Assembly (NCBI GenBank): GCA_964016885.1
Contig: OZ024740.1
Span: 219,294,001-219,358,000 of the forward strand
Direction: 5' to 3'
DNA length: 64,000 bases
Source of the DNA: Eledone cirrhosa
Lineage: Eukaryota
The position numbers and the translations under genes were made by a program. The notes below the pieces were generated by a model. That model made no database searches and was not told the origin of the DNA. It saw nothing but the letters and a program-made list of their open reading frames with translations. Shown here in pieces: positions 8,371 to 56,173 of this stretch (its first letter is position 1; every line of letters begins with the position of its first letter).

Positions 8371-8372
<2 letters not shown>

Positions 8373-8562
8373 AGAAAGTATGACCCCGACGCCAGAGCTC
8401 AGGCCGTTTCGACGGCTATTTCTGGACATAGAAATAGCCGTCGAAACGGCTTGAGCTCTGCCATCGGGGTCATACTTTCTCCTATTACCCACTCTACTAC
8501 CCTAAGTATTGAGTACACTGGTGCATTATGGTCCATCTGGTTCCTTACCACAACTCCTTTGT
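8371..8562 (+). mobile_element. Fold-back element with one-sided tail in (TA)n (second copy 40191-40360)
   Basis: Inverted arms 8368-8423 / 8430-8485, about 77-nt unique tail, (TA)n on both sides. Confidence 0.75.
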
Positions 8563-8640
8563 TATATATATATGTTAATTAGCAGTGTTAGTGTGAAAAC
8601 ATATATTTTTTCAATATATATATATATATATATATATATA

Positions 8641-9532
8641 CAGGGTGTGGACGATATTTGTTCGCAATTTTCAACTGCTAATTTTATGCAAATTTTTTTT
8701 ACTTCCGTTGTCACTCTTGTCTTCATAAAAACAGTGACTATATGTCCATTATTAATTTTCAGGATAATTGATTATGAATAATTTTGAACCTCCAAATTTG
8801 TGGAAGAGACACAGAGTTCTTCTTGGAATCCGCACCGGGAGGACAAATAAGACCAGAAGATCAACTCCCAGAACAACAGGTGGCTCGCTGTCTCATCCAA
8901 AGACGTGCCCTGAGTCATGCAGACAAAGTTTCCAGTGACAACATTGGTCTTAGGTGTCGTCAGCAGTCAAGGTGACGCCATGCCACCTCACTTCTTCCCT
9001 GAGGGCCTCAAGCTGAACACGATGGCTAGATCTGCGTTCTAAGTGAGGTAGTAAAGCCCTGGATTGACCAGGTAGCTGAAGGTAGGCCGTACGTGTGGCA
9101 GCAAGACTCAGGGCCCTGCCATACCAGCCAAAAGACCCAAGCCTGGCTGTCAGAGAACTTCGTCGACTACACTTCACCTGACATCTGGCCTCCCAGCTCG
9201 CCTGATTGCAACCCCCTCGACTTCTTTGTGTGGGGCGCAGTGGAACGAGACACCAACAGATCTAGCTGCAATACGAAAGACGATCCGAAGGCCAGGATCA
9301 CAAGTGCCTTTAGGGGCCTAAGTCGGGGGACAGTGACGAAGGCCTGTAGCCGGTTCCGAGGCCGCCTTGAGGCCGTCATCAAAGCCAATGGCAGGTTTAT
9401 CGAGTGAGATCGAAGGAACAAGTCATGAAGACAAACTGACCCAAGTTTGATAAATATATCTTAAAAAATAAAACTACTGTGTTATTTTTTCCCTAGACAG
9501 TAATCTTGCGAACAGATATCGTCCGCACTCTG
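8641..9532 (+). mobile_element. Internally deleted Tc1/mariner element, DD37D (maT) family
   Basis: TIRs cagggtgtggacgatatttgttcgcaa / ttgcgaacagatatcgtccgcactctg; TA on both sides; transposase remnant. Confidence 0.9.
9093..9407 (+). pseudogene. C-terminal part of a DD37D transposase
   Basis: WQQDSGPCH...WPPSSPDCNPLDFFVW with 37 residues between the second and third catalytic Asp; upstream part frameshifted and deleted. Confidence 0.85.
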
Positions 9533-9950
9533 TATATATATACACACTAGCACTGCTAATTAACTTTGCTCTTTGAAGTCTGCACAATATACAAATGAAC
9601 ATATATATATATATAAATGTATATATATCATTGTTTAGTGATGAGGATATGCATAAGCATATTAAAAAAGATTCAGTCCAACATATTTTATTCCCCATCA
9701 TGCATAAATTAATCATAGAATTGAGCTGATTGTGAGCATTTAAAGCTCCAAGCTGGTTATTTGTGAAACAGATGTTATGTATGATTATGAATAAAATATG
9801 GGTGACTTGCAACTTCAACCTATTTTTCATAATATAAAATTTCTGCATATTACGCTTAAAACAAACAGATGTTGGTATTAATTCACACTTTTTATACTGA
9901 ATATCCAGTTCACATAAAATTATAATGTCTGTGTATAAATATATATGGCC

Positions 9951-9992
<42 letters not shown>

Positions 9993-10108
9993 GGATACTA
10001 TTTATGGTTATGTATATACTAAAACTTTTTATAGTTATATATATTTTAAACCCTAAACAGTGAAGGTCAGTAATTTATTATTACCTTATGTGTACAAACA
10101 TTGAAAAA

Positions 10109-10155
10109 TGCTCTGAAGACTCCAAGCCTAGGTTTGGATGAAACAATTGTAAGTG
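10109..10155 (+). ncRNA. Minimal type-I hammerhead ribozyme motif
   Basis: tgct-CTGAAGA-c-tccaagc/ctag/gtttgga-t-GAA-ACAATTGT-A-agtg; palindromic stem III; AATAAA at 10156; within a (TA)n-flanked segment 9985-10194. Confidence 0.65.
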
Positions 10156-10190
10156 AATAAATGCTTTGAACATAGCTTTGATTCTTGTGA

Positions 10191-10222
<32 letters not shown>

Positions 10223-10225
<3 letters not shown>

Positions 10226-10627
10226 GGTGTTGATTGCTTAAAGCGTCCGTATGCGGTAGGGTGTATGAGCACTCGATGCTTTCATAGAGCAGAGTATATC
10301 GCAGAAAAAAAGAGAATCAGTGTTGCGACGAATGAAATTTATTGGACATATTACAATCATTTCTCTGGCAACCAGCTCGAGGCATGATCGATTTGATGAT
10401 CGAACCTGACTCTGAAAATTGCAAGGCCCTCAGATACGTCTTGATTCTACAAAGCAGATTTTCCTAGGAAAATGAAAATCTGCTTCATAGAATCAAGACG
10501 TATCTGAGGACCTTGCGATTTTCAGAGTTAGGTTCGATCATCAAATCTATCGTGCTGGTCGCCAGAGAAACGATTGTAATATGTCCAATAAATTCCATTC
10601 GCCACAACACTGATTCTCTTTTTTTCT

Positions 10628-10631
<4 letters not shown>
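10223..10631. mobile_element. Fold-back element with one-sided tail in (TA)n, Penelope-like pseudo-LTR relic
   Basis: About 165-bp inverted arms 10295-10463 / 10474-10636, unique 70-nt segment on the left, hammerhead motif in the arms. Confidence 0.7.
10497..10585 (+). ncRNA. Type-I hammerhead ribozyme motif with extended stem II
   Basis: Stem I gacgtat/atatgtc; CTGAGGA 10504-10510; stem II cttgcgat/gtcgccag; GAA-ACGATTGT-A; AATAAA at 10587. Confidence 0.7.
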
Positions 10632-10662
<31 letters not shown>

Positions 10663-10665
<3 letters not shown>

Positions 10666-11088
10666 TTAGTAATTAGAACATTGAGCTTGTAATCGAAAGG
10701 TTGTGAGTTCAATTCTCGGACCGGGTGATGTGTTGTTTCCTTGAGCAAGACACTTTATTTCACATTGCTCCAGTTTACTCAGCTGTAGAAATGAGATGAT
10801 AGGACTGGAGTCCCTATTATTCCACTGCAAAGTGGTCGTGAAGGTGTCACAACAAAAAAAGCACCCAGCCCACACTGTAAAGTGGTCGTGTAGGTGCCAC
10901 GGAAAGAAAGCACCCAGCACTCACTGTAAATGAGGTTGGTGTTAGGAAGGGCATCCAGCTGTAGAAATCAAGCCAGAATCAGTTCCCGTATGAGCAAGAC
11001 ATGGTCAGCTGACCGGACACTGCCCACAACAGGATGACCCATCTAACCTATGCTAGCGTGGAGGAATGGACGTAAAACGGTGATGTGA
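10663..11088 (+). mobile_element. CORE-SINE whose 3' ~265 nt match the RTE lineage A 3'UTR
   Basis: Head and CORE as at 7462; 10822-11088 aligns to 11693-11963. Confidence 0.85.
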
Positions 11089-11111
11089 TATATATATATA
11101 TATATATATAT

Positions 11112-11963
11112 GAAAGTATAGTAACCAGGGTAAGAACGGGATAGAAGAAGTTCAGGGAGCTACTCCCACTGCTAGCTGCAAAAGGCTTTTCCCTCAAAAT
11201 GAAAGGCAGACTGTATGATGCGTGCATACGAACACCAATGTTACATGGTAGTGAGACCTGGGTGCTGTGCATAGAAGACTTGTGTAGATTAGAAAGCAAC
11301 GAAGCTTGCATGCTACAATGGATGTGTAATAGTAATATACGCGAACGGCAAAGTATAAATGAACTGAGAGAGAGACTAAACATAAGAGGAATCAAATGCT
11401 GTGTGCAGGAGAGGAGGATGTGTAGATACGGACATGTGATGCGAATGAAGGATGACAGCTGCATAAAAAGGTGCAGAGCACTAAAAGTTGATGGAAGCCG
11501 TGGAGTGGGGAGACCCAAGAAGACCTGGGATGAGGTGATTAGGTGATAAAAGTGGTCCTTGCCCAATTGCACCTCTCAATGGCGATGACACAGGACCGTG
11601 ACCTCTGGCGTCACTCAGTAATACAGAAGACCCAAGTTCCCATGGGAACAAGCCAAAGCCGAAGCATATAGGGAACATGCCCCCATCCCCTCCCACTGCA
11701 AAGTGGTCGTGGAGGCGTCACGACAAAAAAGCACCCAGACCACACTGTAAAGTTGTCTTGTAGGCGCCACGGAAAAAGCACCCAGCACTCACTGTAAATG
11801 AGGTTGGTGTTAGGGAGGGCATCCAGCTGTAGAAATCAAGCCAAAATCAGTTCCCGTATAAGCAAGACATGGTCAGCCGACCTAACATTGCCCAGAACAG
11901 GACAACCCGTCTAACCCATGCTAGCATGGAAGAATCGACGTAAACGATGGCGATGATGATGAT
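11112..11963 (+). mobile_element. 5'-truncated RTE LINE, lineage A (a 3'UTR-only copy lies at 43245-43530 on the minus strand)
   Basis: KGRLYDACIRTPMLHGSETW...YGHVMRM...GRPKKTW C-terminal RTE motifs; 3'UTR and (GAT)n tail. Confidence 0.9.
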
Positions 11964-12527
11964 ATGTGCACATATATACATGCAAACTCACGCGCACACA
12001 CATATATATATATATATAAATATACATATGTATGTGTATACACTTATTAATGCAGTGGGTTTATAAAAGTTCCCATTTATCAAATCACTCACAGTAAAAG
12101 GAATCAAATACTTGAGTGATATTCTTGCTTGCTGAAAATACAAGTAAATATATATATGTATATATAGCTTGAAATGTTTTTCATTCAGTAGAGGTAGGCC
12201 CATCAGGGACTTGCATTGAGATAGAAGTGACCAAAATATATTGATCTTGAGAATAAAAGAAATAAGCAATAAGTAAAGAATTATAGTTTCTTAGATTCAT
12301 CATGAAGAACAATGGCCATTAACTTGTTCACTAACATGCTACAGTTAACTTCCAGAGTTAATGTATTACTATAGTTAACTCTTAACATTATATACCACAT
12401 GAAACCATATTAACATGAGATTCTTGAAAGTAGAAATCACCATGATTGCATCACATTAAAAATTGAAGTTTTTACTGTGATGCTGTAGGTTTTCTCAATG
12501 ATCTGTTCACTAATAGAGATAATATAT

Positions 12528-12863
12528 CATCATCATTTCATTTTACGTCCGCTTTTCCCTGCTTGCAAGGGTGGGACGGGAACTGATTCTGGCTTTATTT
12601 CTACAGCTGGATGCCCTTCCTAACAACAACCTCATTTACAGTGAGTGCTGGGTGCTTTTTTTGCCGTGGCACCTCCACGACCACTTTGCAGTGGAGTGAT
12701 AGGGACCCCAGTCCTATCATCTCATTTCTACAGCTGAGTAAACTGGAGCAATGTGAAATAAAGTGTCTTGCTCAAGGAAACAACACATCACCCGGTCTGA
12801 GAATTGAACTCACAACCTTTCAATTGCAAGGCCAATGCTCTAACCACTAAGCCATGTGCCTCC
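12528..12863 (-). mobile_element. Full-length CORE-SINE with RTE-derived tail
   Basis: Head ggaggcacatggcttagtggttagagc; near-identical to 7462-7798 and 16827-17145. Confidence 0.85.
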
Positions 12864-13068
12864 AATATATATATACACACAGAGATATCCACGGTAAGTT
12901 GTGGGGTCTATTCTGCATGAAGAACTCAATGTAATCCATATGTTGAAAATGTTGTAGGTTAAGATAAATCCCGGAAAACAATAAAACATTAAAAGGAAAA
13001 CAGAGTCATGATATAAGTTAAAACAATTCATTGTTTTAACTTATATATATATATATATTTCAATTTAA

Positions 13069-13266
13069 CCCTTTTGCATTTAAACTGGCCATATCCGGCC
13101 AGAATTCTCCCAACTCTTTCTGTTCAAACCGGCCATAAGTGGATGCTCATACTGACATTAAAGTATTCTCAAATTAAATATCAAAATCTCAGATTCGATA
13201 TTATGTGAGATAAGCCTTTACTGTGAAAATACAATAGCATACGTAGAGAATGTAAATGTTAAAGGG
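13069..13266. mobile_element. piggyBac-type MITE (family I)
   Basis: TTAA|CCCTTT...AAAGGG|TTAA; internal sequence shared with four other copies. Confidence 0.85.
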
Positions 13267-13436
13267 TTAATAAACCTTTTTTGTTTTCTAGATATATTCT
13301 GCTAAATCGTTACAGGATGTTAAGAATTAATCTATATTATATTGGTTGAGTCTTTATGTTCATCAGTCAAACACAAATGCTATGATCTAAATGTTGTTAT
13401 TTAGAACCCCCCCCCCCCCCACATGTATATATATAT

Positions 13437-13772
13437 AAGAAGAATTAGATGTAGTGTGCGCAGTAGGGAAGACTGCTGGTATGATCATGTGATGCATAGG
13501 AATGTTGATCTTTTGCTGAAGAAGTGCCAATAAATGCCAGCAGAAGGAAGTTACAGTAGAGTGTGTGTGTGTGGTTGGGGGGTGTGGGGGACAAGAAAGA
13601 CCTTGGCAGAAGTTGTGAGAGCTGATCTCAAATCACTGAATATCACATTGAGTTGACAAAGGACTGTGATGAGTGAAAGGATGCAGTGCTGAAAAAGTTC
13701 TGTCCAAACCCATGCAAGACAGGAACAATGGACGTAAAACAGCTATGATGACAATGATGATGATGATGACGA
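13437..13772 (+). mobile_element. Degenerate RTE lineage C 3' fragment
   Basis: Aligns to 53640-53950; (GAT)n tail. Confidence 0.65.
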
Positions 13773-14260
13773 TATAAATCATAGTTTATTCATCTATTCA
13801 CTTACTCATGTACTAAATAGTTTGAGGGCCTGACACATAGTCCTCTAATTATCATGGTTGACTGCCAATAAAACCACCAACCTCTAATATTAAACATTCA
13901 GACATAATGCAATCTGCTTTAATTAAATATTGCCAATATCTTGAATACTGCCGATATTTCTTTTTGCCATCAACAACAACAACAACAACAACAACAACAA
14001 AGACCACCACCACCACCACCACCACTACTACTACTACTACAGTTAATGGTATCTGAAAATCTAGGTTTCTAGTTTCAACATCAATAGCTTCTTCTTTTAC
14101 TATTCTACAAATTTAATTTGTTATTTGTTATAGACATTATTGTTGTTGCTGATTCGCCCAAGGTCTGTCTTGACCAAAATGTTATAGATATTGAAGCTGC
14201 AATTATCCCTTCCTTTCATATATCAAGGACTATAATGCTATTGCATTTCTCTTTCATTAA

Positions 14261-14480
14261 CCCTTTAGCATTTAAGCTGGCCATATCAAACCAGAATTCT
14301 CTCTCCTCTTTCTGTTCAAACTGACTGTAACCGACTGCTCATACTGATGTTAAGGTATTGTTCTCAAATTAAATAATATCAAAATCTCATAGTGTCGATA
14401 TTATGTAGATAATTATGTGAAGTAAAGCCTTTACCATGAAAGTATAATAGTAAATATAGAGTAATATAAATACTAAAGGG
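14261..14480. mobile_element. piggyBac-type MITE (family I)
   Basis: TTAA|CCCTTTAG...CTAAAGGG|TTAA. Confidence 0.85.
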
Positions 14481-15060
14481 TTAAACATCAATACAGCATC
14501 CCAATAAATTGTTGATTTTAAATAAAAATATCTTGTGTAGTATTTGTTCCACTATGGTTACATAAACAGTCCCCTGCCACTATCACTGTTAGAAACCCAG
14601 TGAACCAGTCAACCAGTCATTGGCTTCATTGAAAACCTGTCATCATGCTATTGTTCACCAAATGTGATTATTTCTTTTAACATTTGATAAATTTGGAAAG
14701 GAAATGGGCACTGCCAAGCCTTTTTAAGACCCATTGAAATGTTATGATGGACACACTGTAAAATATCTAAAGTGGCACCCCAATGACTGGCTGCACCACT
14801 TATGAAAACATTATTGATTGAGATTGGCAGTATCGGTAGAGGATCGGATGCCATGCTTTGAAGCATAGAGTTACCTCCCTGTATGATCTGATTTCAAATC
14901 CCGCTGAGGTTAACTTTGCCTTTCATCCTTCCGGGGTCGATAGAATAAAGTACCAATAATGCACTGGGGTAATTGCTGGCCTTGTACCATAAGTAGAAAC
15001 AATTATTGATTGAATGTCTAGCGGGGAAGATGGGCGTTAAACGATGATGATGATGATGAT

Positions 15061-15370
15061 TGAATTCTGGAGAATGGGCCACTACCCATGGCCTTCACAG
15101 GCTCTCTAAGACTGGAGGGATCGATGCCCTATTTAAACAGTTACATGCCAGACCTTTCGAAAAAAATATGAGTACGGAGGAATTCCAGAGGACTGGTGTT
15201 CTAGGTGTAGGTCTAGGTGTAGGAGTTAGTGCAGAGACTGGAGAGTTGGACACAAAATGGGTGATAAAAAGAGGAGAGACAAATGAGTCATTTGTGTCTT
15301 TGTGGAGGTGAAACGGGGGCAGTCAACTTTGAGGAGCAGTGATGATTGTAGTAATGGTAGAAGAGACAAA
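15061..15370 (-). mobile_element. CR1-group (Zenon-like) LINE 3' fragment
   Basis: Disrupted frame CLFYHYYNHHCSSKL...HPFCVQL...PRTPVLWNS resembles the SLFYRYY..CS / PRTxxLWNSLP ORF2 C-terminus. Confidence 0.6.
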
Positions 15371-15699
15371 ATATATAAAATGTAGATCCCTCTCCTCATC
15401 GTCGCCACTGCCGCCGTCGTCGTCGTCGTCGTAGTAGTAGTAGTAGTAGTATGCACATTTTTTCCCTGCTTGTATGGGTTGGACAATAAATAAATAGATA
15501 GAACATTAAAATGGGATTAGGATATTTGGCTGCTATTTCTAGCATATTAAACAACCATGTAGTAGCTTCTTTGTTGGTTCATTTTAGTTTATAGAGATAT
15601 TAAGGTTGTTGCTTCTGTGTTTCTCAGGAATTGTGAATATTAATGTCATATCTCAATAGTAATTACTTTACCATCTTTGTATGGAATATAACATTTTTT

Positions 15700-15975
15700 A
15701 TATAATAAGAAGGTTTTAAGGTTGTTGGACTTATGATCATGATATCATGGGTTTGATTTCTAGACTGGGTTGTTTGTTGTGTTCTTGAACTAAACATTTC
15801 ATTTCACATTGTTTCAGTATACTCAGCTGAAAATGAGCAGCTGGATATTTAATCCTGTGATGGACTGGCATCCTATCCAGGATGAAGTCTTGTACTCTCA
15901 GTCACTTAACAGCAAGAAAACCAGGATAAACACTGGCCTAATTAGTCTCTGGGCTTGAGACAGACTTTACATTTT
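15700..15975 (+). mobile_element. Old CORE-SINE variant
   Basis: ttcttgaactaaacatttcatttcacattgtttcagtatactcagctgaaaatgag, diverged CORE motif. Confidence 0.55.
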
Positions 15976-16826
15976 TTATATAATAAGCAGTGATCTGAGG
16001 TAATGACAGAGTCTCTATATTGTTGCTTGACCTGCTAGAAATAGCAACACAGTTCCCTCAAATTATCCACCACTATCAACTTGAAAAAGGGAAAGGACAT
16101 ATTGAATAGTGTAGTCCTAGATACAATATCTGAAATAAAGTATGGGATGATTATGACTGGAATGATTTAAGTCATTAGTCTGTTTGATGAGGGAGCTGAT
16201 TGGGGTTAAACAATGGCAATACCAACAACAGTAACCATGATTAAACGTTAGTTTGTTCCCTAAGTTAACTATTAATATCCTGGAATGATTTAGCAGAAAA
16301 TATCTACAGAACGCTTTTGTTAATTCAAATGTTTAATGTATCTTCACTAGCAGAAACCTTTTTGTGGAAATTCACACATTTAGAGTAAGGACTTCAATTT
16401 TTAATGTGATGCAGTGTTAGAGCTGTTTTTTTTTGTTTTATTTTGCTTTTCATTAATGTGTTACTAAAGTTTCATGTTGTACACAGTGTTAGGAGTTAAA
16501 CACATTATTGCCAGAGTGTAGCTGAACAGCAAACATGTCCTTTGATCTTCCTTTTATCCTTTTATTGGTTTTAGTCATTTGACACTAACTTGAAGGGATT
16601 TAGTTGATCATATCAACTCCAGTGATTAGTTTTTCAAATCTAGTCCTTATTTTATTAATCTCTTTTTGTGGAACTACTATGTTATAGGATATAAACAGTA
16701 AATATAAACACAGACATACACACATACATATATGCATACACTCACAGACACACATGCATACACACATATATATATATATATAATGGACTGTTGCACAGTA
16801 TCCATCTTCCAAATTTAATTGACAAA

Positions 16827-17145
16827 GCATTGGCCTTACAGTCGAAAGGTTGTGAGTTCAATTCTCAGACCGGGCGATGTGTTGTTTCCTTGAGCAAGGT
16901 ACTTTATTTCACATTGCTCCAGTTTACTCAGCTGTAGAAATGAGATGATAGGGACTGGGTCCCTGTCCCTATCATTCCACTGCAAAGTGGTCGTGGAGGT
17001 GCCATGGCAAAAAAGCACTCAGCACTCACTGTAAATGAGGTTGGTGTTAGGAAGGGCATCCAGCTGTAGAAATCAAGCCAGAATCAGTTTCCGTCCCACC
17101 CTTGCAAGCAGGGAAAAGTGGACGTAAAATGAAATGAAATGAATG
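16827..17145 (+). mobile_element. CORE-SINE with RTE-derived tail
   Basis: Same structure as 12528-12863. Confidence 0.85.
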
Positions 17146-19831
17146 AAGGCACTGGTCAAACTGAGGCTATGGTAGAAGACACTTGCTCAAGGTTCCACAC
17201 AGTGGGACTGAAACCAACAATATTTGGATGTAGAGTGAACTCTTTAACCACACAGCCATGCATCTCTATGCATTTCTATGACCAACAAGAGTGATGATGC
17301 CTTAAAAAGTGGAAAATCCCATTTAACCCTGCTACTGCAACATATTTTTTCATACACAGAGCCTTGTTAACTAAGAATTATAAGGAACGTTTTCCTAGGG
17401 ACCACTACATGGAGATGATGTTGGCTCAGTCTCCAAAACTTGATTTATCTGCTAGAAACTTCACTCAAAGTGTCTTCTTCCCCATTATTGGTGGGGTGGT
17501 GTGTTTAAGGAATGTCACTAATGGAGGCGAGAACCAATAATGTAGGTTACAGAATGTCTGATAAAAAACTAGATGGGCATGGTTGGAATGTTTTTGATCA
17601 TAAATCTGCTCTATCAGAGCTGACCTTATTTGTCTAAACAAAAACTAGCCACAACAATACATATTCTTTATGACTTGCTATGAAAATATCTTTGTAAAAT
17701 CTAGTGTTCAGAGATACACAGGTGGAATGTTAGCAATTGCATCAATTTTCCTAATGGCCTCATCATGAACATCAAATGCTGTTCTGAAATCCACTTAAGT
17801 GATTATCTGGAGCTTAGACTTGTACTGATGCTGCTCAATTCTTCTGATGATGATGGTAAACATATAATCAATACAAAAATGGTCTTTCTAAATCCAGTGG
17901 ATACAGAAATCTCTAAATACATGTTAGTAGTAAGGATGATATCATAAAATCTTTCTCTGGCTGCTAAAAGTAATGTTATATTCTTCCTTTTATTGCAGTC
18001 TTTCATGTTCTTCTTGACAAACAATAAATTCTATACAGGTAGTATAATACATGTTTCAGGTATTTTGTAAAACATTTGGTATTTTGCTGAAATGGAATAC
18101 ACATACACACACACATACCCACACACATACATACATATATATATTTGTGTTTCTCTTCCATGAAAAAAATACATGAAAAGCTAGCATACAACTTATCTAG
18201 TGGACATAAAAATCTCAGTTAAAAATATATGGTACTTTGTAAATGTTGTTTGTAAATAGAGGTGTAACTTATCTACTAGTGTGGCATATGTATGATCCCT
18301 TAGCTCCTGAGGGACACATAGGGGAACTGTATTGACATACACCATTTCTAGGACATTTTTTTAAAACCGGGTGGCACCCATCTCCTCTCCAGTTCTGAAT
18401 ATAGCAGATTTCTTCCAGAGAAGGATAAAAAGTGGGAGAATGGAAGTGAGAAAAAGATATAGAGGAAGAATCGACCCCAGTACTAGACTGGTACTCTTTT
18501 ATCAACCTTGAATAGATGAAAGGCAAAGTTAACCTTGGTGTGACTTATACATTAGGATATATGACATGTTGATGTTTAGCCCCATATCACTTTTATTTGA
18601 GATGACCCAATATCAAAGACATACCAGCCATGATCATTCTGTTTAGTTTATTTTCCAGTAGGGTCCAATATGTCCACCCTTTGTAAAATAATAGAATATA
18701 ATATGAAGAAAAATTAGCTACCATTTCTAGTAGAGTGAGTCATATAGATGTTCTCTCATTGAATCAGATAAAAATATCATCATCAATTTATGTACACTTT
18801 CCCTACTGGCATGTGTTGGATAGGTTGTTACAGTCCAAGCCATCTCTTATTTAGAGTTATTACACTTTTTGTGAACCTTGGAAGTGGAGGACCTCATCTT
18901 GCATGTACATTCCAATTTTTGGCATGGCTGGATGGCTGGATGCTCTTCCTAATACAAAACATTTAACAGAATGTACTGGGTGCATTCCCTGAGAATTACG
19001 TTAAAGGTACATATGTTTGTGAAATGCTCAGCCACTTGCACATTAATTTCATGAGCAGGCTGTTCCATTGGAACACTTGTCGTTGTAATCGACAGTGTGC
19101 ACCAGGTCATGTCCTCAACCAGTATCTCTGTTTAATCATCAACAACTTTACAGTGTAGTAAGAGCATTCTATCATGGTGCCAGCACTACAGAGATTCCTT
19201 TGCCCCAAAATATATGTATCATTATCATCATCATCATCTTCATCATTTAACATCCATTTTCCGGCAGTATCGGCAGAGGGCCAGACACACTGCTTTGCAG
19301 CATAGAGTTACGACCCTTTATGATCTGAGTTCAAATCCCACCGAGGTTAACTTTGCCTTTCATCCTTACAAGGTCAATAATATAAAGTACAAGCCATGCA
19401 CTGGAGTCGATTTAATCGACTTTCCCCTCCCCTAAAATTGATGGCCTTTGCCTATATAAGAAACCATTATTATTATTATACAAATATAAATATATAAAGA
19501 TATGGTGCAAAACATTGTTATATACAACCCTATTGAATATTTTTTTAAAGAATCCGTTTCATTCTTAATTGTACTAATTTTGTTTTAGTGGTTTCTATGA
19601 AGTTGTTTTCTTGTAAATTCTTTACCATGTATATTAATTGCTTATCTAATTATTCTAGCAGTTCCTGTGAAAACAAAGGCAGTGTTTGTGTCTCTCTCTA
19701 TATATATTATTCTTTACATTTTTATCTCTTTAGTATTTGGAACATGTTTACAATAATTATCATGTTTTCAACAGTTTCATGCAAGCTTTTATTGCACCTC
19801 CAGGTATATTTCTTTATTCCTCAGGTGCGCA

Positions 19832-19989
19832 CGTGTGTGTGTCTGTGTCTGTGAGTGAGTGAGTGTGTGTGAGAGAGAGAGAGAGAGAGTGTGTATGTGT
19901 CTGTGTGTGAGTGAGTGTGTGTGTGAGAGAGAGAGAGAGTGTGTATGTGTCTGTGTGTGAGTATATGCGTGTGTGTGTCAGAGAGAGAA

Positions 19990-20028
<39 letters not shown>

Positions 20029-20072
20029 CAGATAGTGTGTGTATGTGTTTGCAGGTGTATGTGTTTGTGTGA
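19832..20072. repeat. (TG)n/(AG)n compound microsatellite
   Basis: Direct inspection. Confidence 0.9.
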
Positions 20073-21180: not shown

Positions 21181-21208
<28 letters not shown>

Positions 21209-25368: not shown

Positions 25369-27070
25369 TAGAGACGGCTATGATGGAATCCATGGAGGCT
25401 ATAGGTTTGGTACTAGAAATGAGGAAGGCTCCAGAATCCTGGAATTCTGTGACGCAAATAACCTATCTGTGACACAAACTTCAAAAAATGAGACAATCAC
25501 TTGATCACCTATAGATCAGGGGAACACGCCAGTCAGATAGATTATATCCTTACCAGAAGACATGACAGAGTAAAGAATGCACCCCCCAACATAGCCTCAT
25601 AGTTTGCGACCTCATAGTCAGGACAAGACATACTCGACAACAGAGGAGGACTACCCTAAGGAGAAGCATATGGAAGTTAAAGGACGCCACAGCCAGTAAC
25701 AAATTTAACAGCATAATACTTGATGCTTTTGACAGTAAGGAAGAGCAATTAGAGTCGTACAATATAGAGGAATAGTGGGAATTCCTGAAAGCTAACCTGC
25801 TGAAGGCGGCAGATGAAGTCTGTGGCTGGAGCAGGCCTATAGGCAGGAGGAGAGTAACGTGGTGGAGGAACAGTAAGGTGGAGGAGTCAATTAAGGCCAA
25901 AAAGCAGGCTTGGAAAGTATGGCAGGAGGGGGGAAGTAGAGAAGACTATCAAGTGGCCAGGAGGGAAGCTAGGAGACAAGTGTACTTCGCAAGAAGGGAA
26001 GCAGAGGAAAGAAAGTTCAAGCATGTTCTACAATGCGAGGACCAAAAACGTGAGGTGTTCAGGATTGCTAGGCAATGTGTCAAGGAAAACCGTGATATTG
26101 TCGGGGAGAAGTGTGTCTTGAATGATGATGGTGTACTTGCCATCACTGACGCTGATAAGAAGGTAGCGTGGAAGTGTCATTACGAGAGGCTACTAAAAGT
26201 TCAGAGAGCTTATACCACTATTGGCTGCTAAAGGTTTCTCTCTAAAAATGAAAGGCAGACTGTATGATGCCTGCATACGAACAGCTATGTTACATGGCAG
26301 TGAGACATGGGCATTGTGTAAAGAGGATCTGCGCAGACTGGAGAGGAACGAAGCATGCATGCTCCGCTGGATGTGTAATAGTAATATACGTGAACAGCAA
26401 AGCATAAATGAACTAAGTGAGAAATTAGGTATAAGAGGGATCAGATGCTGTTTACTCGAGAGAAGACTATGTTGGTATGGTCATGTGATGCGCATGAAAG
26501 ATGACAGCTGTATAAAAAAGTGCAGGGCGATCAAAATTGACGGAAGTTACGGAGTAGGCAGAGCCAGAAAAACCTGGGACGATTTGATGAATTCCGACCT
26601 TACAGACTTACACCTCTCTAAGACAATGTCACTGGACCAAGATCTTTGGCGCCACTTAGTAATATAGAAAACCCGCCTTGCCTAAGTACAAAGTGAAACC
26701 TACAGTCAGTAGACACCTCTTAATCAAATATACACCCCCCTCCGACAACCCCCACCCCACCCCATCAGCACCATCCCTTTCTCTGTAAAGTTATGTTAGT
26801 ACAACAACATCCAGTCCTAAATAAATGAGGTTGTGTAGGTGTCATGACAAAAAAAAAAAACACACAGTCCACGCTGTAATGTGGCCATGTAGGTAACACG
26901 GTAAAAACCTCCCAGTCCACACTGTAAACATGGTTGGTGTTAGGAAGGGCATCCAGCCGTAGAAAACCTGCCAGACAGTCCTATACGAGTGAGATGATGA
27001 ATTTTGCCTCAAGTGGGACAATTCCCGTCTAAACCCATGATAGACGTTAAATGATGATGATGATGATGAT
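25369..27070 (+). mobile_element. RTE LINE lineage B, 5'-truncated, RT core deleted
   Basis: APE C-terminal motifs GTRNEEGSRILEF and SQIDYILTR, tether region, junction at about 26197, C-terminal RTE motifs, 3'UTR and (GAT)n. Confidence 0.9.
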
Positions 27071-39867: not shown

Positions 39868-40190
39868 TATGAGGGTCAGCTAAAAGGTTCATTGGCTGAA
39901 CAAGATACTCTCTTGAGTTCTATTTTTCAACATAGTCTTTGGAAAGAAACAAGGCAGTTATTAATAAGAAGAGTTGAATTTAATGCATGCATGATTTCAC
40001 AGCTCTAGCATCACTCCTTCATATAGCACCACCCTCGTAATTATGATATGTATATATATACATAGAGAGATAGATGGAAATGTTACATATACTCCCATCA
40101 TTGCATCTGAGCCAAGGTCTTTTCTTTAATTCATGGATCACTGGACATGTCAGTGAAACGATAGAGACCAATATAATATATATATATATA

Positions 40191-40358
40191 GGAAAAAGTA
40201 TGACCCCGGTGGCAGAGCTCAAGCCATTTCGACAGCTATTCCAGAAATAGCCATCGAAACGTTGGGGTCATACTTTTTCCTATTACCCACTCTACTACCC
40301 TAAGTATTGAGTACTCTGGTGCGTTATGGTCCATCTGGTTCCTTACCACTATTCCTTC

Positions 40359-40360
<2 letters not shown>
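40191..40360 (+). mobile_element. Second copy of the 8371 fold-back element
   Basis: High identity to 8371-8562 with a small right-arm deletion; (TA)n on both sides. Confidence 0.75.
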
Positions 40361-40404
<44 letters not shown>

Positions 40405-40990: not shown

Positions 40991-41457
40991 TTAATTATAT
41001 ATATATAATTTTCATTCTGTCATTACCACAGTAGGGGTCCAACAAGCTTTTGATTCCAGAGTCTAACCCATGCTAGCATGGAAGATGGACATTAAACGAT
41101 GATGATGGTGATATATATATATATATATATATATTGTTATACTTTGGGAGGGTCATGTTGCTAATACAAACACACACACACACACATATATATTGTATCC
41201 CTATATGTATTTTTTACATGTAGGAACACATACTTTATTATTATTAATCTCCCCTAAGGTTGAGATAACATTTGGTCGTTTGAACTGCTGCTATTTCTAG
41301 TGGCAGGACATTGACCTTTCCGCCCTTGCCTTCTGTCTTTACACACGGCACTAGACAAGATTGGTTCCTTCCTCATTCACTCTCATCCGGGAACGGTTTT
41401 GTTTGGCGCCAGTTTGTGATTTGAACTCGGGAATTTTATATTCTCCGAGCAAGAAGA

Positions 41458-41541
41458 ACCTTCTGACGAGAATCCCCTTCTCAATGGTTATCCACTTGGA
41501 TTATCCATTTATTTTGGGGTTTGAAACCGCGCGGTAAAGGT
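41458..41541 (+). ncRNA. Type-I hammerhead ribozyme with intact core
   Basis: acctt-CTGACGA-gaatccc...gggttt-GAA-ACCGCGCGGT-A-aaggt; perfect 5-bp stem I; palindromic stem III; predicted cleavage after GUA (41536). Confidence 0.8.
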
Positions 41542-41628
41542 ACATATAGTAAGTACAGCAAACTTTTTAAAATTTATTTTAAAACTTTTTCTCTATTTGC
41601 TAAACCTTGATTTTATATATATATATAT

Positions 41629-42768
41629 ATCATCATCATCATCATCATCATCAACGTTTAACGTCCGTGTTCCACGCTTGCATGGGTTTGGACGGGGGTA
41701 GTCCCACTTGAGGCAAGAGTGATTGTCTTGCTCGCATAGGACTGTCTGGCAGGTTTTCTACAGTTGGATGCCCTTCCTAACACCAACCACATTTACAGTG
41801 TGGGTCTGGGAGGTTTTTACCGTGTTGCCTACACGGCCACATTACAGCGTGGACTGTGTGTTTTTTTGTCGTGACACCTACACGATCTCATTTGTTTCGG
41901 CCTCGATGGCGCGGCACCAACATAACTTTACATGGAACGGGGTGGTGTGGATGGGGTGGGGGTGGTGGTGGTGGGACGGGGTGTATTTTGTTAGAGATGC
42001 CTACTGGCTGGAGTAGGTTTTACTATATATTTAGGTAAGGCGGGTCTTCTCTGTTACTGAGTACCGCCAAAGGTCTCGGTCCAGTGACATTGTCTTGGAG
42101 AGGTGTAAGTGTGTGATGTCGGAGTTTATCAGCTCGTCCCAGGTTTTTCTAGGTCTGCCTATTCCGTGACTACCGTCTATCTTTATTGCCCTGCACTTTG
42201 TTATACAGCTATCGACTTTCATGCGCATCACGTGTCCATACCAACGTAGCCTTCTCTCGAGTAAACAACATCTGATCCCTCTTATCTCTAATTTTTTCCT
42301 TAGTTCGTTTATGCTTTGCCGTTCACGTATATGACTGTTACACATCCAGCGGAGCATGCAAGCTTCGTTCCTCTCTAGTCTGCGTATATCCTCTGCACAC
42401 AATGCCCAGGTCTCACTGCCATGCAGCATTGCTGTTCGTATGCAGGCATCGTACAACCTGCCTTTCATTTTTAGTGAGAACCCTTTAGCAGCTAATAGTG
42501 GTATAAGCTCTCTGAACTTTTTCCAACCAGTTCTGACTCTAGCTACAGTACTTTCAGAGCACCCTCCCCCACTGCTGATTTTATCGCCCAGGTAACGGAA
42601 GCTGTCCACTATTTCTATAGAACCCTCTGCGCAATTGAAAGAGCTAGTATTTTGTGGGCACTTGCTGCTACTTATTGCACCAGAGCACCGGCCACATGTA
42701 AAATCTATGTTCTTAGTTAGCTTACCTGTGATCCCACTACATCTTTTATGCACCCATACTTTGCATTT

Positions 42769-42774: not shown

Positions 42775-42840
<66 letters not shown>

Positions 42841-42843
<3 letters not shown>

Positions 42844-43239
42844 ATAAAAGGACGATTTTTTATGTCTTCATTATGTTTATTGAGTAGTGATGTGTACTTT
42901 GCTATTGATTAGCTCAAGGTTCGATCTGTATCAATCTGGCCCAACTCTGGAATCAAAAGCTCGTCATTTATAAATTCAATGTATTTTCATTCTGTCATTA
43001 CCACAGCAGAGGTCCAATGAGTTTTTGATTCCAGAGTCGGGCAAGATCGATACAGATCAAACGTTGAGCTGATCAATAGTGAAACATGCATCACTACTCA
43101 ATAAACGTAATGAAGACAACAAATCGTCTTGCTATTATTATATTCACACTCCGTTTAGTTTTATAGCTCTTTACAGACGGGAAACTACACAGCAAGTGCT
43201 CACTGGATGAACCTACAGTAACTGCATGTTATACTCCCT
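42841..43239 (+). mobile_element. Fold-back element with one-sided tail in (TA)n, decayed hammerhead; a fragment also lies at 41009-41065
   Basis: Inverted arms about 42841-42966 / 43018-43142, tail 43143-43239. Confidence 0.7.
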
Positions 43240-44960: not shown

Positions 44961-44997
<37 letters not shown>

Positions 44998-48113: not shown

Positions 48114-48535
48114 AATATATATATATTTGTACGTATGTAAGGGCAGGTGTAAACCTGACCACGATGCATTGAGTAAGCTTACTACATACAAGCTGAAAAT
48201 GCTAAGCGTCATGGTTGGGTTTATACCTTCTTTTATATACACTCTGCTCCTTCCATACATATAGTACTACCTTGATTTGTGGTCTTCTTGGCTCAGCACT
48301 GTAGTCTTTCGCTATATATATATGTAAAATTATAAGTTTGAAGAATAGTCAGACAAAATTTATCCAATTTGTTTCTTCTCAATCTGTAGAAGTTAACTGG
48401 ATAAATAATTATTTATCCAGTATAAATGATTATAATCATTTATACGGAGCTAAGTTTAAAATGTAACTTTGAAGAAATAACAGATAAATGTTATCGATAT
48501 TCCTTTATGAGGAGCAGTCAGATAAAATTTACCTA

Positions 48536-50121: not shown

Positions 50122-50166
<45 letters not shown>

Positions 50167-53100
50167 CATATATATGATAGACTTAAACACAGCTGCTGTC
50201 TACCAAATTTTACTCACAAGACATTGGTCAACCTGAGACTATAGTAGAAGGGAAAACAGAAGTTAAATGATGATGATGGTGGTGGTTATTATATGTGTGT
50301 ATTTGTGTGTATGTAGTTAGTGTATTCATGATTGTAAGCTAAGGATTTGGATGTCTTTCATATTGATTGCTCTCAGCATCCTTATCTTCTACAAATTATA
50401 AGTTTGTTGTGGTATTGGAAAGTTCAAAAGAATTCTAGTACATATATTAATGTTAACATTTATGAATAAATATATCTTATATATTGCACCTAGATTTTAC
50501 ATATAACATTTACAATGCACCATATAATTTAAATTGGGGTTTTGTAGGTCTAGTAGATAAGTTGCATACTTTGAGAGGGAGCCCATGATTTTCAAAATGT
50601 GTGTTCCAAGCTATTGATTTTCTCCATAATTTACAATAATTTGGTATATTGCTTACTAGATATTTTTTTTTTTTTGCCATTATTCTTCAGTGAAGATGAA
50701 ACTAGCTGTGTTAAAAGCAAATTTAAAGTGCAGACATATAACGTGTTTTGAAGTGCAAGTGAGGAATTGATTAGCCAAAATTTGCTTTTTAGTATTCCTT
50801 GCCCAGCTGAAGACCGAAAACTGAATTTCTTCAGAACATCAAAAGCCTTATAAATTCGGTCATTTTTGTTATTATGTTTACTGCTGACATATGTGTATAT
50901 ATCTGACCTACTATATCAGATTCTATGTTGTTTCTTCTTTTCTACTTTGTTATTTCGATATTCTATTATCTCTCATAAGTTTCCTTCTCCCTTATTTTTT
51001 CTTTCTTCTGGCTGCAAGCCAGGAGAACTTTGCAAATAATTCTATCCTGTCTTTCTTTCAGCTGTTCTTACACCATTTGTTCTTTTTTTTATGTTTAGCT
51101 TTCTTCTTTTTCATTATTATTAAGATATTTTTTCTTCTTATTTCTTCCTCACACATTTCTATTTCTTTCTGCATGTTCCCTTCATTAATTCCAGATTAGT
51201 TATCTACGGAGGTGGTGATTGGAGATTGAATGAAGGACATTTGTAAATAAGTTATGCCTGACCTTGAATGACATATTTATTATGAATTGATTCACATGGT
51301 TGGGAGGAATTGTACTTTAAATATTTCTTTAACCCCTTTCTTATCGTATTTCTAAATAATTTTGAAAATAATCAAGAATTGTATACCTGGTGTTTGGGTT
51401 GTACTGTACCACATCACCCGTGGAAGAAGAAATAACATTTCATCTATTGACATTCAATCCTTCTACAATCACCCTTCATCTCTCTATTTCTTTTCCTCCA
51501 TCACTCTTTTACTACTCTACTTTTCTTCCATCAAGATACCTGTGTAATGTGTAACAAGGGATGACATTGAATTTGACCATATCTGATAGCTATTTCCCAC
51601 CCCCATTTCATTTTTCATTGGTACCTACTATTCTTATTTATCATCACCCATCTCTGTTGTAACCCCATTATGTTGCCAAGCTGTTTTTCTATTCAATCTT
51701 CTTACCAACAACCAGTATGCTGCTATCATTGTCTCTCTTCCATTACTCCCTCTCTTCCATTACTGTCTTTCTTCCATACGCTCTCTTTTTTATCCTTTTG
51801 GTTATCACTTTTTTTCTTGATTCACATGCTCAGTCATTTTTATCTTGAAAGAATAGAGACAATCTAAAACAGAGAGGATTCTTTAGTCTTGCATAGAACA
51901 AAGCACCCTCTGTAGTGCTGGTGCAATGATCAAATGCGCATAGTACATTCTATAGAGTGGCTAATCTTTGAATGGAGACAACATAGAGGAGAAAGGGCTA
52001 TTTAGTCTTGTTGAGGACATGAACAGATTTCTAGTGCTGGTTCTATTATAAAATGCACCCTGTACACTTTGTAAAGAATTTGATATTAGGAAAGTCATCC
52101 AACCCTAGAAACCACCCAAAAATGGAACTTGTGAGCAAGATGTGGTCTTACGACAGGGCAGCAACATATACTCTGTATTGTATATTAAGTATTATCTATT
52201 TGTTTATAAACTGTTTACATTTGAACATTTATATAGAAGCACACACACACATATATATACACATTCACACACATGTCACAGACATGTATATTTATGTATA
52301 CACATTTTATACATGTACATGAAAACACACACACATATGCACACACATAAAATGTCTATATATAAGCATATATATATTTGTACATTGTGTCGTTCCAACT
52401 GATATATATTACTGTAAGAAAATTAAAAATTCTGTCTGTTACTCTTCCTGAAGTGTAATTCACAAAACAGTTTACAAGATTACACTATATTAATTTCATA
52501 TGGAACAGCATCCAAATATTTTTGAAATGAGAACTTCAAATTTACAAAGCCAAGAGATAATTTTATTCAAAAATAGACATAAAATGATGATGATGATGAT
52601 GAAGACAATGGCACATTGACATATTTCAATTTCTCTTAAATTGATTTGGATATCTATCAAGATTGTTTGGGCTAAAATTGAATCTAAGTAAGAACCATCT
52701 TTACACTTAATTACATTTTCTTGTGCTATTTTTCTGATACATTTTCTATGTTCCTTTCATATATTTTAAGAATCTCAAATGGCTTAGAAATTCCTAAATA
52801 GTAAATGCTATTATCCTAATTTGAATATTGTTTAGTAAATTATAAAATTTAATTGAGCATTAGAAAAGTATAACTTCACTATTAACCATTTTGATACCAG
52901 ACCACACTACACAAACTGCCCATTATTTTATGGTACAATGCTGTTTATTTTAAAATGTTTATATTTATGTAAGAACTTTCTGTCATGATTTTACATAAGA
53001 ACATTTGTTAAGTTATGCTTCAAACATCTGCCTGAAATAGTTATATTATTAAATCTCTCCAAATTCTTCATTATTTTTTAAATTATTTGAAAATCATAGA

Positions 53101-53467
53101 CAGTTTATCTTATTAGAAATATGGTAATGAAAGGGTTAACGAGGATAACTAAACAACTCAATGAGTGATTGTGATTTGTGAGATACGCAATTGAAAAATT
53201 TGGTCTGTTGATATATTGATATATACGCTGCCAATAAAAAATACATGCACCTGTTGGGTTTCACCACAATTTATTATTATAATTTCCCAGTTGGTTAGTT
53301 TAATAACCAGATGGTTGTTTAGTTGTTGATTGTCAAAGCTCTATTATCACACATTCTGTGACCTCCTCAATGACAACTTTTGTTGTTACTTTGTCTCTCC
53401 TTTGTTCTGTTTTACACCATCTACACACACACACATGCGCACACACACACACACACATATATGTATG

Positions 53468-53519
<52 letters not shown>

Positions 53520-53520
<1 letters not shown>

Positions 53521-53952
53521 GAGAAATGGGCAGCAACTGCAGAAGATATGTGATGGCTGGAGAGAAATGAAGCAAGCATGCTCCGTTGGATGTGCAATGT
53601 CAGTGAGCGTGAATGACCAAGCATAGACGAGTTGAGAAAGAAACTGGGTATAAGAGGGATAAGTTGTGTGCAGGAAAGAGGACTGAGATGGTATGGACAT
53701 GTGATGCGCATGGAGGATGACCGCTTGGTAAAGAAGTGCCAAGAAATGCCAGTGGAAGGAAGAAGCAGTAGAGGTAGACCACGAAAAACATGGGCGGAGG
53801 TGGTGAGAGCAGACCTCAGATTGCTGAAACTCACGAAGGAGATGACGAAGGACCATGACAAGTGGAGAGATGCTGTGCTGAATAGGACCCGCCCAACCCT
53901 TGCAAGCAGAGAAAAGTGGACCTAAAAGGATGATGATGATGATGATGATGAT
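53520..53952 (+). mobile_element. RTE lineage C 3' fragment
   Basis: LRWYGHVMRMEDDRLVKKC...GRPRKTW; (TA)n on both sides. Confidence 0.88.
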
Positions 53953-54302
53953 ATATATCCACTGCTGCTATTATCCTACTGTTTCCCTTCTGGACAGGTC
54001 ACCAGACCATTCTAGGCTCTCTTTGTAGAGTGACAAAGTTAAATTGGATTGAAAGAAAACGATGACCATGATGATGATGATAATAATAATTATTATAATT
54101 ATCAACGGTCCTGTACTCACAATCATTTATCACCCTCTCCCTTTTTTTCTCAGACTTGTTTTTACCTTACTCATACTCCAATGTTCTACGATATGAATAC
54201 ATGCATAGATACATGCATGCATACATACATATATGCTTGCTTATGCACATATATTCATACATAAGATACACACGTACATACATATGTGCACACATACATA
54301 CA

Positions 54303-54635
54303 TGATGGTTGCCCCCTCGTTATCGAATATGGCCATTGCATGATATACCATTATTAATAATTATTAATTAATTCTATCGTGCAATGCCTGTGTGTGAAGA
54401 TATTTTTTAAAGTGAGGAAAGACTGCACTGAGTCAATCCCACTCTCTGAGCGACAGTTGCTATAACCCGAAAAGAAGAAAAGATCAACATCATCGGTAAC
54501 TACTGAGCCGCAGGTTTTATATCGGAGTTATCCAGGTTTCCTGAGCTGCCTTCTAGAAGAATGCCCTGAGAAAGGCTAGGGGTCCTTCACTCCCAGTGGT
54601 TTAACCGCGCGATCGGGTGTCCAGCCTGACTATTT
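54303..54635. mobile_element. Unclassified repeat (related piece at about 54880-55098), possibly an RTE-related non-autonomous element
   Basis: Both pieces share tttaa(a)gtg.ggaaa.gact...caatcccactctctgagc...cccgaaaag...tcaacatcat. Confidence 0.4.
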
Positions 54636-55681
54636 CTATGTCCCTGTGCATATACATACACATGCGCCCATGCATATACACATATACACACACATGTACA
54701 TGTGTATATACATATTTACACACTTTTGGATGGCCGTTGACCCTTATGAGTTCTTCCACCCTTTGTCAGTACATACATATGTATGTACATACATATGTAC
54801 ATACATATGCACATAGATACATACATATGTACATACATATGCACATAGATACATACATATATACATACATACATAGATGATGGCTGCAAACTCTGCTAAG
54901 AGTATTGCAGTCGTTTGTCAGATTACAGAAAATGGTGCACTTTTAGGCTACCGCCTGTCACATGAACCTGTAACAGATCCTGAACAAGCAATGTCTGTGC
55001 TTTGAAGGTTTTTTAAGTGGGGAAAGGACTTGCACGCGACCAATCCCACTCTCTGAGCATCGGAAACACTACCCGAAAAGGAGAACTGGTCAACATCATA
55101 CATACATACGTACATACCTACATACATGCATACATATATACATGCATGCATACATACAAACAGACAGATAGATAGACAGATAGATAGACAGCTAGATAGA
55201 TATAATGATGATTATATATGTATTCATACTGGGGAGTGTATCAGTTATAAATTCTAAATATATTTCCAATGTATGCAGTAGCACTGAAAATGTGTTCTCA
55301 TTTGATCCGATGTGAAAAAAGAAATGTGTATAGCTGAAATACAAAACAGACCTGATGTTAAATATGAAGTTAATATAGTAGTGGCCTTAAAAAACATAAA
55401 AACTGTTACAAGAAGTTAGATCAGCTAATTGAAATAACATCAGTAAACTGTAGTTACATTATTGATCTCTTTGACTAGGCAAATGGCCAATTTTCTTTCC
55501 TTTTAGTTGAATAAATGTAGCCAATTGAATGAACACAGCACAGTATTGGCACTACTTTTACAAACCCTGGTGGGGTTCACAAAGTAAAATCAATCCTGAC
55601 TGGATTTGAACTTGGTATAGCGAGGCTCAAAACTAATCTATATTATAGAAGCTGTGCAGCCATTTTGTCTGTTTGTCACCC

Positions 55682-55715
<34 letters not shown>

Positions 55716-55888
55716 ATTATCCCTTTACGTCCACATCTCCACGCTTGCATAATTATTATGTGCAGTGCTCAGGTGCACTATAACATATATGTATGTAAAA
55801 TAGCAATAATAAATACAAAGACAAAAATTCAGAGAAGACTTGATAAGAGGTTTATATATAGAGAGAGATATAAGCAATTATATATATA

Positions 55889-56173
55889 CAGGGAGACACA
55901 AAGCAGGCTTTGTTTACAAATGGCTAGCGAATTTGAAAATTAGGTAGTAACATGTGTTTATGTCGTATTTGACTGAATAGAATTAGTCTGTTTGCTAGGA
56001 TTTAAAAAAAAACCCTCTGAATGGAAAAGAGGATGAGTATTGATGTACATGTGACATGAACCCACATCTTTGGTTTGCTGGACCAATGGTAACACAGAGG
56101 GTTTTTTTAAATCCTAACTAATAGACTAATTCTATGTAGTCAAATACGGTATAAGCACATGTTACCACCTAAT
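55889..56173 (-). mobile_element. Fold-back element with one-sided tail in (TA)n
   Basis: Inverted arms 55939-56019 / 56095-56173, unique 50 nt on the left. Confidence 0.6.

Follow-up and report, generated by a model that had tools for sequence, protein, structure and literature searches.

We analysed a 64-kb window of the Eledone cirrhosa genome (contig positions 219294001-219358000; assembly size 3.0 Gb), which is rich in (TA)n and (ATC)n and holds eight short elements beside (TA)n, all located where a preliminary description of the sequence had placed them. Coordinates below are positions in this window, elements and their families are labelled by window start (8371, 9985, 10223, 40191, 41230, 42841, 48137 and 55889), and L-numbers denote genomic loci. 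Most of these elements are very probably the 3′ ends of truncated Hydra-type Penelope-like retroelements that carry a predicted hammerhead ribozyme, and mostly represent new members of a known clade.

Six of the eight combine an inverted duplication with a tail on one side only, as had been described; their arms align with identities of 35/38, 26/35, 53/56, 70/79, 107/125 and 149/162, and the tails measure 50-86 nt. The 8371 element (8368-8563, plus strand) is a fold-back stub of a Hydra-type Penelope-like family with coding parents at L232, L341 and L287. It comprises an inverted arm (8368-8423), a direct arm bearing the 3′ half of a hammerhead (8430-8485) and a tail (8486-8563). The predicted scissile C lies at 8465, and truncation within stem II leaves this copy without the U3-A8 half of the core. 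A second copy of the family, 40191 (40188-40357, plus strand), carries a deletion in its direct arm, and 48137 (48133-48312, plus strand) is an old fold-back stub related to 8371, longer copies of which have a hammerhead. On the minus strand, the 10223 stub (10223-10635) has its tail at 10223-10297 and its arms at 10295-10463 and 10474-10635; an intact hammerhead occupies the inverted arm (core 10504-10510, a stem II region of 56 nt, stem III 10570-10577). The older 42841 stub (42836-43230, plus strand) has arms at 42836-42962 and 43019-43143 and a tail at 43144-43230. A 53-bp fragment of the core-proximal part of the same family, absent from the preliminary list, lies at 41011-41063 (plus strand). 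The last of the six, 55889 (55889-56173, minus strand), is a copy of a tandem-forming unit of about 287 bp with a tRNA-like cloverleaf (3′ part at 56088-56041) and a T6 run. It uses two fixed 3′ end sites, has its inverted arm at 56095-56173 and lacks a hammerhead.

The remaining two are built otherwise. The 9985 element (9986-10194, no strand assigned) is an inversion without duplication: an insertion of a young Hydra-type family, with parents at L186 and L187 that encode reverse transcriptase (RT) and a GIY-YIG endonuclease, in which a tail end (9986-10089, minus strand) is joined to an inverted piece (10086-10194, plus strand) of the pseudo-long terminal repeat (pseudo-LTR). Its hammerhead has the core at 10113-10119, stem III at 10143-10150 and the predicted scissile A at 10151. 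The 41230 element (41193-41614, plus strand), a retrozyme-like non-coding unit of about 490 bp found in partial tandems, has no inversion; its hammerhead comprises the core CTGACGA (41463-41469), a palindromic stem III (41526-41535) and a predicted scissile A at 41536.

These elements had been assigned to about seven sequence-unrelated families. Alignment of 8371 with 48137 was matched by none of 300 shuffles, and by 0/200 under stricter scoring; that of 10223 with 42841 was likewise matched by 0/300, with 9/200 under stricter scoring, which is not significant. Both pairs are homologous, and the number of lineages therefore falls to five.

Hammerheads were sought with a descriptor admitting the cores CUGANGA, CCGANGA or UUGANAA and a stem II region of 8-70 nt; the variant cores joined it only after being met in the families. 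The window yielded three complete type-I motifs, with cores at 10113, 10504 and 41463, where 40 shuffles averaged 0.15. When stem II was capped at 40 nt in a stricter scan, no hammerhead was found in the window. Rfam listed none among the 150 of 198 window matches shown, and returned no hammerhead match on 23 loci. The four recognisable hammerheads originally reported thus reduce to three intact ones: at 42841 the window copy has decayed (core CCAATGA, stem III ACATGCAT), and the motif survives in its family, mostly with the core CCGACGA. The AATAAA close behind three of the motifs is present as reported. The stem III attributed to 10223 did not hold up in the family, where counted arms carry ACGATTGT in 56 of 70 cases and ACGATCGT in 3.

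Conversely, 8371, 40191 and 48137 had been listed without a hammerhead, yet their lineage has one, with a U3-A8 core. Longer 8371 and 48137 copies share the core TTGANAA, in which N varies, and pair G10.1 with C11.1; their stem III is a 5-bp hairpin that shows a compensatory change between the two families; in the longer 48137 copies the core is TTGAGAA, with a 6-bp stem II. As this stem III folds alone, the label of minimal, dimer-only ribozyme does not suit the lineage. Elsewhere the core is CCGAAGA in 22 and CTGAAGA in 5 of 28 copies (9985), mostly CTGAGGA (10223), and CTGACGA in 24 of 25 true core matches (41230). The stem III pairing of 41230 amounts to -19.9 kcal/mol in the dimer versus -0.9 alone. 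The hammerheads lie on the sense strand of the pseudo-LTR, and self-cleavage is predicted from their sequence.

A random sample of 60 evenly spaced 10-kb stretches (600 kb) from the three largest contigs held 73 hammerhead motifs, 11 of them in one 310-bp array, against 0, 1, 0, 0 and 1 in five shuffles. The density on these contigs is about 100-120 per Mb, so that three motifs in 64 kb are not unusual. Published counts, obtained with other descriptors, include 5,000 for a mussel and as many as 120,000 for axolotl. The array (L374:6620-9720, minus-strand positions) consists of 11 motifs at 310-bp spacing, a classical retrozyme-like tandem to which Rfam is blind. Some 20 further hammerhead families were seen by eye at L325-L384, one of them a second U3-A8 family whose stem III is ACCGGT; Hydra-type endonuclease remnants are numerous there.

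The elements are multicopy. Seven family queries gave 219-5232 first-look candidates each (40 scored per query), related copies are present in contigs of sequencing runs X1 and X2, and the random sample contains insertions of 8371 (28), 9985 (4), 10223 (2), 42841 (3), 41230 (1), 48137 (1) and 55889 (3), relatives included. If the three sampled contigs are typical, this extrapolates to about 10^5 copies for 8371 and 5,000-20,000 for the others. To avoid favouring hairpins, two samples were collected with the tail alone as query (8371, n = 29; 10223, n = 29), a choice of query that necessarily makes the direct arm end at the outer site. At the 3′ end, (TA)3 was found in 26/29 and 27/29 of these copies, respectively, and in 26/27 random insertions, compared with a background of 4-11%, which bears out the proposed enrichment of (TA)n at the junctions. 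Other retroelements also appear to be drawn to (TA)n, since (ATC)n ends abut it: at 58446-59264, a 97%-identical inverted pair of repeat ends faces a central (TA)n through (ATC)n tails, and similar (ATC)n ends adjoin (TA)n at 41614 and elsewhere.

Extension of the families upstream recovered coding sequence for three of them. In the 9985 family, L187 reads as an inverted pseudo-LTR, a broken open reading frame (ORF) for RT and GIY-YIG, a 1.3-kb 3′ untranslated region (UTR), a pseudo-LTR and a tail, and L186 matches it over 2.6 kb. Three 8371 loci, L232, L287 and L341 (a random draw), have the endonuclease end 0.7-1.1 kb upstream, and longer copies of the family have an upstream RT as well as the GIY-YIG domain. 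For 42841 only the endonuclease was reached: a short end lies upstream in L237, and in L197 it is joined through a deletion. No ORF was found for 10223 across 48 loci, nor upstream of 48137, 41230 or 55889 in the loci examined; for these four, the suggested extension to RT plus GIY-YIG ORFs did not succeed.

The motifs of these parents match those of the Hydra clade, defined in the consulted part of PMC8557442 by RWK/DKT, CxCX5C, CxxC and CxH. The RT of L187 has RWR, DKT and YRDD; that of the 8371 parents has YRDD or YRDG, the recovered part excluding the N-terminus. The C-terminal GIY-YIG domain with the CxCX5C linker, CxxC and CxH is complete in L186, L187 and L341, lacks the first linker Cys in L232 and is represented in L237 by its CxxC/CxH end only. 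CCHH is absent from the parent endonuclease ends, as read by eye. Among 22 homologues found, the three that were read carry RWR/RWK, DKT or a DKT-like motif, and CxCX5C.

Several observations weigh against this assignment or against active ribozymes. All parents are broken and none yielded an intact full-length ORF; Pfam matched the GIY-YIG domain of the parents below threshold (E 0.0027 and 0.012) and left the RT unmatched. The link of 42841 to an ORF is a short endonuclease end, 10223 and 48137 are tied to ORFs through homology only, and 41230 and 55889 are not tied. An ORF at L194, considered as a parent of 42841, was rejected, as it belongs to another family with its own pseudo-LTR in 19/19 other loci. 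Single-strand folds of five motifs are no better than those of shuffles (z from -1.3 to +1.1), and the 9985 and 42841 families are mostly U4C, a change that lowers hammerhead activity considerably in vitro according to the part of PMC3088659 consulted. The family at L194 (L194:2218-6310, L245-L264) is a young (97%) Penelope-like family in its own right, with its own hammerhead-like motif and tail and 1881 candidates.

Short non-coding repeats with inverted arms and TA flanks would also be expected of TA-targeting DNA transposons that end in terminal inverted repeats (TIRs), such as miniature inverted-repeat transposable elements (MITEs). The window holds a true Tc1-like remnant with such ends (8641-9533; Tc1/mariner-like, TIRs, TA flanks, and a DDE_3-like fragment at 9030-9404 by a weak Pfam match). 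The elements described here have asymmetric ends, one-sided tails and variable 5′ ends, many copies lack the inversion, and longer copies continue into RT/GIY-YIG coding sequence, which refutes a DNA-transposon nature for 8371, 9985 and 42841 and makes it extremely improbable overall. The coding parents, the 3′ (TA)3 counts and the sampled motifs instead uphold the broader proposal of a Penelope-like origin, with hammerheads in the pseudo-LTRs, (TA)n targeting and many parallel families.

The tail-selected samples show how the fold-back shape varies. For 8371, 22 fold-backs were called, of which two were dropped by eye (L203, a match to the natural stem II, and L205, an adjacent element). True fold-backs therefore number 20 among the 29 copies, and in 19 of these the inverted arm begins at +20 relative to the scissile base. 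The 10223 sample contains 19 fold-backs among 29 copies, 16 of them with a start at +56; a further tail-selected sample (n = 19) contains 11, all at +56. The shape is absent from 9/29 and 10/29 copies, respectively. In these samples the outer ends are fixed, and the inner breakpoints differ between arms and between copies. Each family has two fixed 3′ end sites, both bearing a few bases of TA-like sequence by eye, and the inverted arm begins at the inner one.

The preliminary description had viewed the fold-backs as dedicated non-autonomous families copied from hairpin-shaped masters. Full-length queries do bring back dozens of similar fold-backs, the 9985 junction of the window recurs in 8/29 other loci and the 8371 breakpoints cluster. 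Yet full-length queries themselves favour the shape, almost no two inner breakpoints coincide in tail-selected copies, junction fillers differ, the copies without a fold-back have no place in such a scheme, and coding parents exist. Hairpin masters are accordingly improbable: the variable inner breakpoints together with the fixed outer ends fit independent insertions better. The non-autonomous label is retained for 41230 and 55889 only, and is mostly dropped elsewhere, three families having coding parents. A fold-back centred on the natural stem II was likewise rejected, as most junctions lack the natural loop.

The fold-backs thus probably arose as separate, truncated insertions, each initiated at two fixed sites. 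The enzyme of the element would cut a (TA)n run, and both broken ends would likely prime reverse transcription. One complementary DNA (cDNA) may start at the outer site and so include the tail, and the other would begin at the inner site and form the inverted arm, which has no tail; the two would stop early and be joined into a hairpin with a one-sided tail. Purified Penelope protein is described in PMC11167929 as cutting and extending both strands, with two internal start sites that bound the tail. A literature search on twin priming with Penelope-like elements found no relevant report.

A Penelope origin could also be combined with inversion by hairpin self-priming, or with pausing at stem II, in place of two-ended priming and run-off at a transcript start. 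Self-priming has been argued for rotifer Penelopes on an antisense template (PMC3846280, consulted in part), the 8371 stop sits at the foot of the 7-bp inner hairpin of stem II, and the 10223 junction in the window is a short palindrome. The two arms of a copy mostly terminate at separate positions, in many cases with filler or repeated restarts (L224, L230), which a single snap-back does not predict, and the inverted arm has a fixed internal start directly next to (TA)n. We consider this route unlikely, though less so than hairpin masters. The 8371-family junctions at L230 and L224 show repeated restarts at one upstream site, as from template jumps.

Where the arms stop bears on the role of cleavage. 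In 24 random-sample arms of 8371, 11 end at -48 to -30, two beyond and one at the scissile site; across all other 8371 loci, diverged subfamilies included, 4/132 end at the scissile site. With so few arms ending there, cleavage rarely sets the 5′ end, and cleavage-defined 5′ ends are not supported. The stop edge about 41 nt upstream of the scissile site falls on the A of TTTAGTCC, in loop II, which we take to resemble an initiator. In Drosophila Penelope, transcription is described as starting within the pseudo-LTR. A weaker pile-up in 10223 lies at -114, upstream of the core. It is about an even call whether the 8371 stop marks the 5′ end of a transcript starting inside the ribozyme, and run-off at a transcript start and pausing at the stem II hairpin are about equally probable. 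An extra G precedes 18 of 24 arms stopping at this site. This gives a hint of a cap-derived base, mostly accounted for by the opposite arm; the junctions that the opposite arm leaves unexplained number 6/20 by eye, a count that speaks against the transcript-start interpretation.

For the 41230 family, no ORF belonging to it was found upstream, either in 29 loci or in 7 extended ones. Truncated upstream copies end 75 nt ahead of the next copy, which gives a unit of about 490 bp. Candidate parents were rejected for wrong side or orientation and an unmatched 3′ end (GIY-YIG in L020/L238; RT pieces in L007 and L028). Non-LTR retrozymes (PMC7229834; bioRxiv 10.64898/2026.07.22.740005) are, in the parts of these sources consulted, also non-coding units with one type-I hammerhead in tandems, and their units are proposed there to derive from Penelope pseudo-LTRs. 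Unlike them, 41230 is 490 bp long and occurs mostly as 1-1.8 units rather than long arrays. It is probably a retrozyme-like passenger of Hydra-type elements and, judged by its motif and organisation, is predicted to work like a non-LTR retrozyme.

The 55889 element had been counted in the hammerhead and fold-back cohort. No hammerhead core was found in it, including across the unit junction, and it contains a tRNA-like cloverleaf. A 270-bp sequence and a 17-nt TA-rich spacer make up the unit, which contains, in order, a 48-nt leader, a 71-nt cloverleaf beginning at unit position 49, T6 about 10 nt past it and two 3′ end sites; TA is the only simple-repeat tail. Rfam scored the cloverleaf at 29.6-52.7 bits in all 5 loci scanned. 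Its anticodon is GGC, with C33 and no G3-U70, and it is thus unlikely to decode. In 29 copies picked via the head, the 3′ end falls at the outer site in 15, the inner site in 8 and elsewhere in 6; 16 have a truncated tandem copy and 15 an upstream inverted piece, 9 of these starting at the inner site. Short collinear matches hint at a possible relation of 55889 to the 8371/48137 lineage, reached by 1/200 shuffles each but by 52-67/500 under looser scoring.

Given these ends and inversions, we lean moderately towards 55889 as a ribozyme-less, tRNA-bearing passenger of Hydra-type elements; the literature describes Penelope pseudo-LTRs as able to carry unrelated sequence in trans. A smaller but substantial chance remains that 55889 has no relation to Penelope and is an ordinary tRNA short interspersed nuclear element (SINE) mobilised by a long interspersed nuclear element (LINE), a TRIMp3-type element or a dispersed satellite. 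The tRNA-like part, which scores up to 52.7 bits, is similar to the head of a SINE that is common in this genome (0/300 shuffles), no partner ORF is at hand and the match to the 8371 lineage was reached by 1/200 and 52/500 shuffles. On the other side stand the inverted pieces (15/29), truncated tandems (16/29) and use of one of two end sites (23/29). Head-to-head inversions number 0/66 and 0/22 in two ordinary SINEs, against 2/7 for 55889 copies encountered incidentally in that comparison, made with a different script and sample; the (TA) counts for these SINEs do not refer to true 3′ ends and were left aside. A SINE would place its tRNA-like part as a 5′ head read through to a LINE-like tail, whereas here it is internal and followed by T6. 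A TRIMp3 element would have two LTRs with precise ends and a target duplication of 4-5 bp; against it speak the variable 5′ ends, the inversions, the two alternative 3′ ends and the lack of an LTR pair, the primer-binding site and purine tract having been assessed by eye. Helenus, Ajax and Cassandra (TRIMp3; PMC10886601, consulted in part) and tRNA SINEs resemble 55889 as short non-autonomous elements with internal tRNA-like sequence; unlike them, 55889 has Penelope-type ends and inversions and no precise 5′ end. No report of a tRNA-derived Penelope passenger was found in literature listings, a search that left Repbase and most subscription journals outside.

The window also contains tRNA-like SINE heads, narrowly sub-threshold in Rfam and similar to the tRNA-like part of 55889 (7741-7798 and 12797-12854, minus strand; 10661-10881). 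Fragments of an abundant non-LTR retrotransposon ORF lie at 56173-58297, 25776-26664, 11145-11543 and 42034-42600.

Hammerhead-bearing, (TA)n-targeting Hydra-clade elements are already published, and our core finding adds families to that clade. In the consulted part of Craig et al. 2021 (PMC8557442), the clade, including Hydra-1_Obim, shares with our families the RT motifs, CxCX5C linker, C-terminal GIY-YIG, (TA)n targets, a sense hammerhead near the 3′ end, an inverted 5′-truncated copy and a one-sided tail. Partial tandem copies, a further trait of the clade, were observed as well. Hydra-1_Obim of Octopus bimaculoides is listed there with its (TA)n target and hammerhead, and unpaired 10.1/11.1 positions are common in the hammerhead table, like the 9985 and 10223 mismatches. 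In our families, by comparison, tails are 50-164 rather than 30-40 nt long, 3′ UTRs measure at least 0.7-1.3 kb and stem II regions reach 60 nt. They also have U3-A8 and U4C cores, which do not occur in the Hydra rows of File S2, and most copies are tiny stubs. Among the matches listed for hammerhead ribozymes and octopus, only Craig et al. concerns Penelopes.

Cervera and De la Pena 2014 (PMC4209133), in the part consulted, describe Penelope hammerheads as type-I with a palindromic stem III, with U3-A8 in Schistosoma Cercyon and, as here, most motifs in solitary truncated copies and some in opposite-strand pairs. The U3-A8 lineage of Eledone departs from this in its self-sufficient hairpin stem III, and the motif density sampled here lies far above their counts (about 9,000 in Xenopus tropicalis), the descriptors being different. 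In O. vulgaris, 31 recently active Penelope-like families are reported (PMC13282606, consulted in part), and the repeats described here may already be in that library.

Tentatively, three further features may go together in this genome: 55889 as a Penelope-mobilised counterpart of SINEs and TRIMp3, with a tRNA-like cassette replacing the ribozyme in thousands of copies; 8371 stubs as strong-stop cDNAs in about 10^5 copies that record a transcript start inside the hammerhead, only the downstream ribozyme being complete; and some 3 × 10^5 genomic hammerhead motifs. The motifs escape Rfam, and annotation could mistake the elements for MITEs. Very many short insertions, whose starts are fixed and whose stops vary, form a natural data set on the inverted ends and tails of Penelope elements, and one that also tests whether hammerhead cleavage sets template ends, which here it mostly does not. 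A tRNA-bearing Penelope passenger, if true, would be a new pairing of a small-RNA-derived repeat with a retroelement class.

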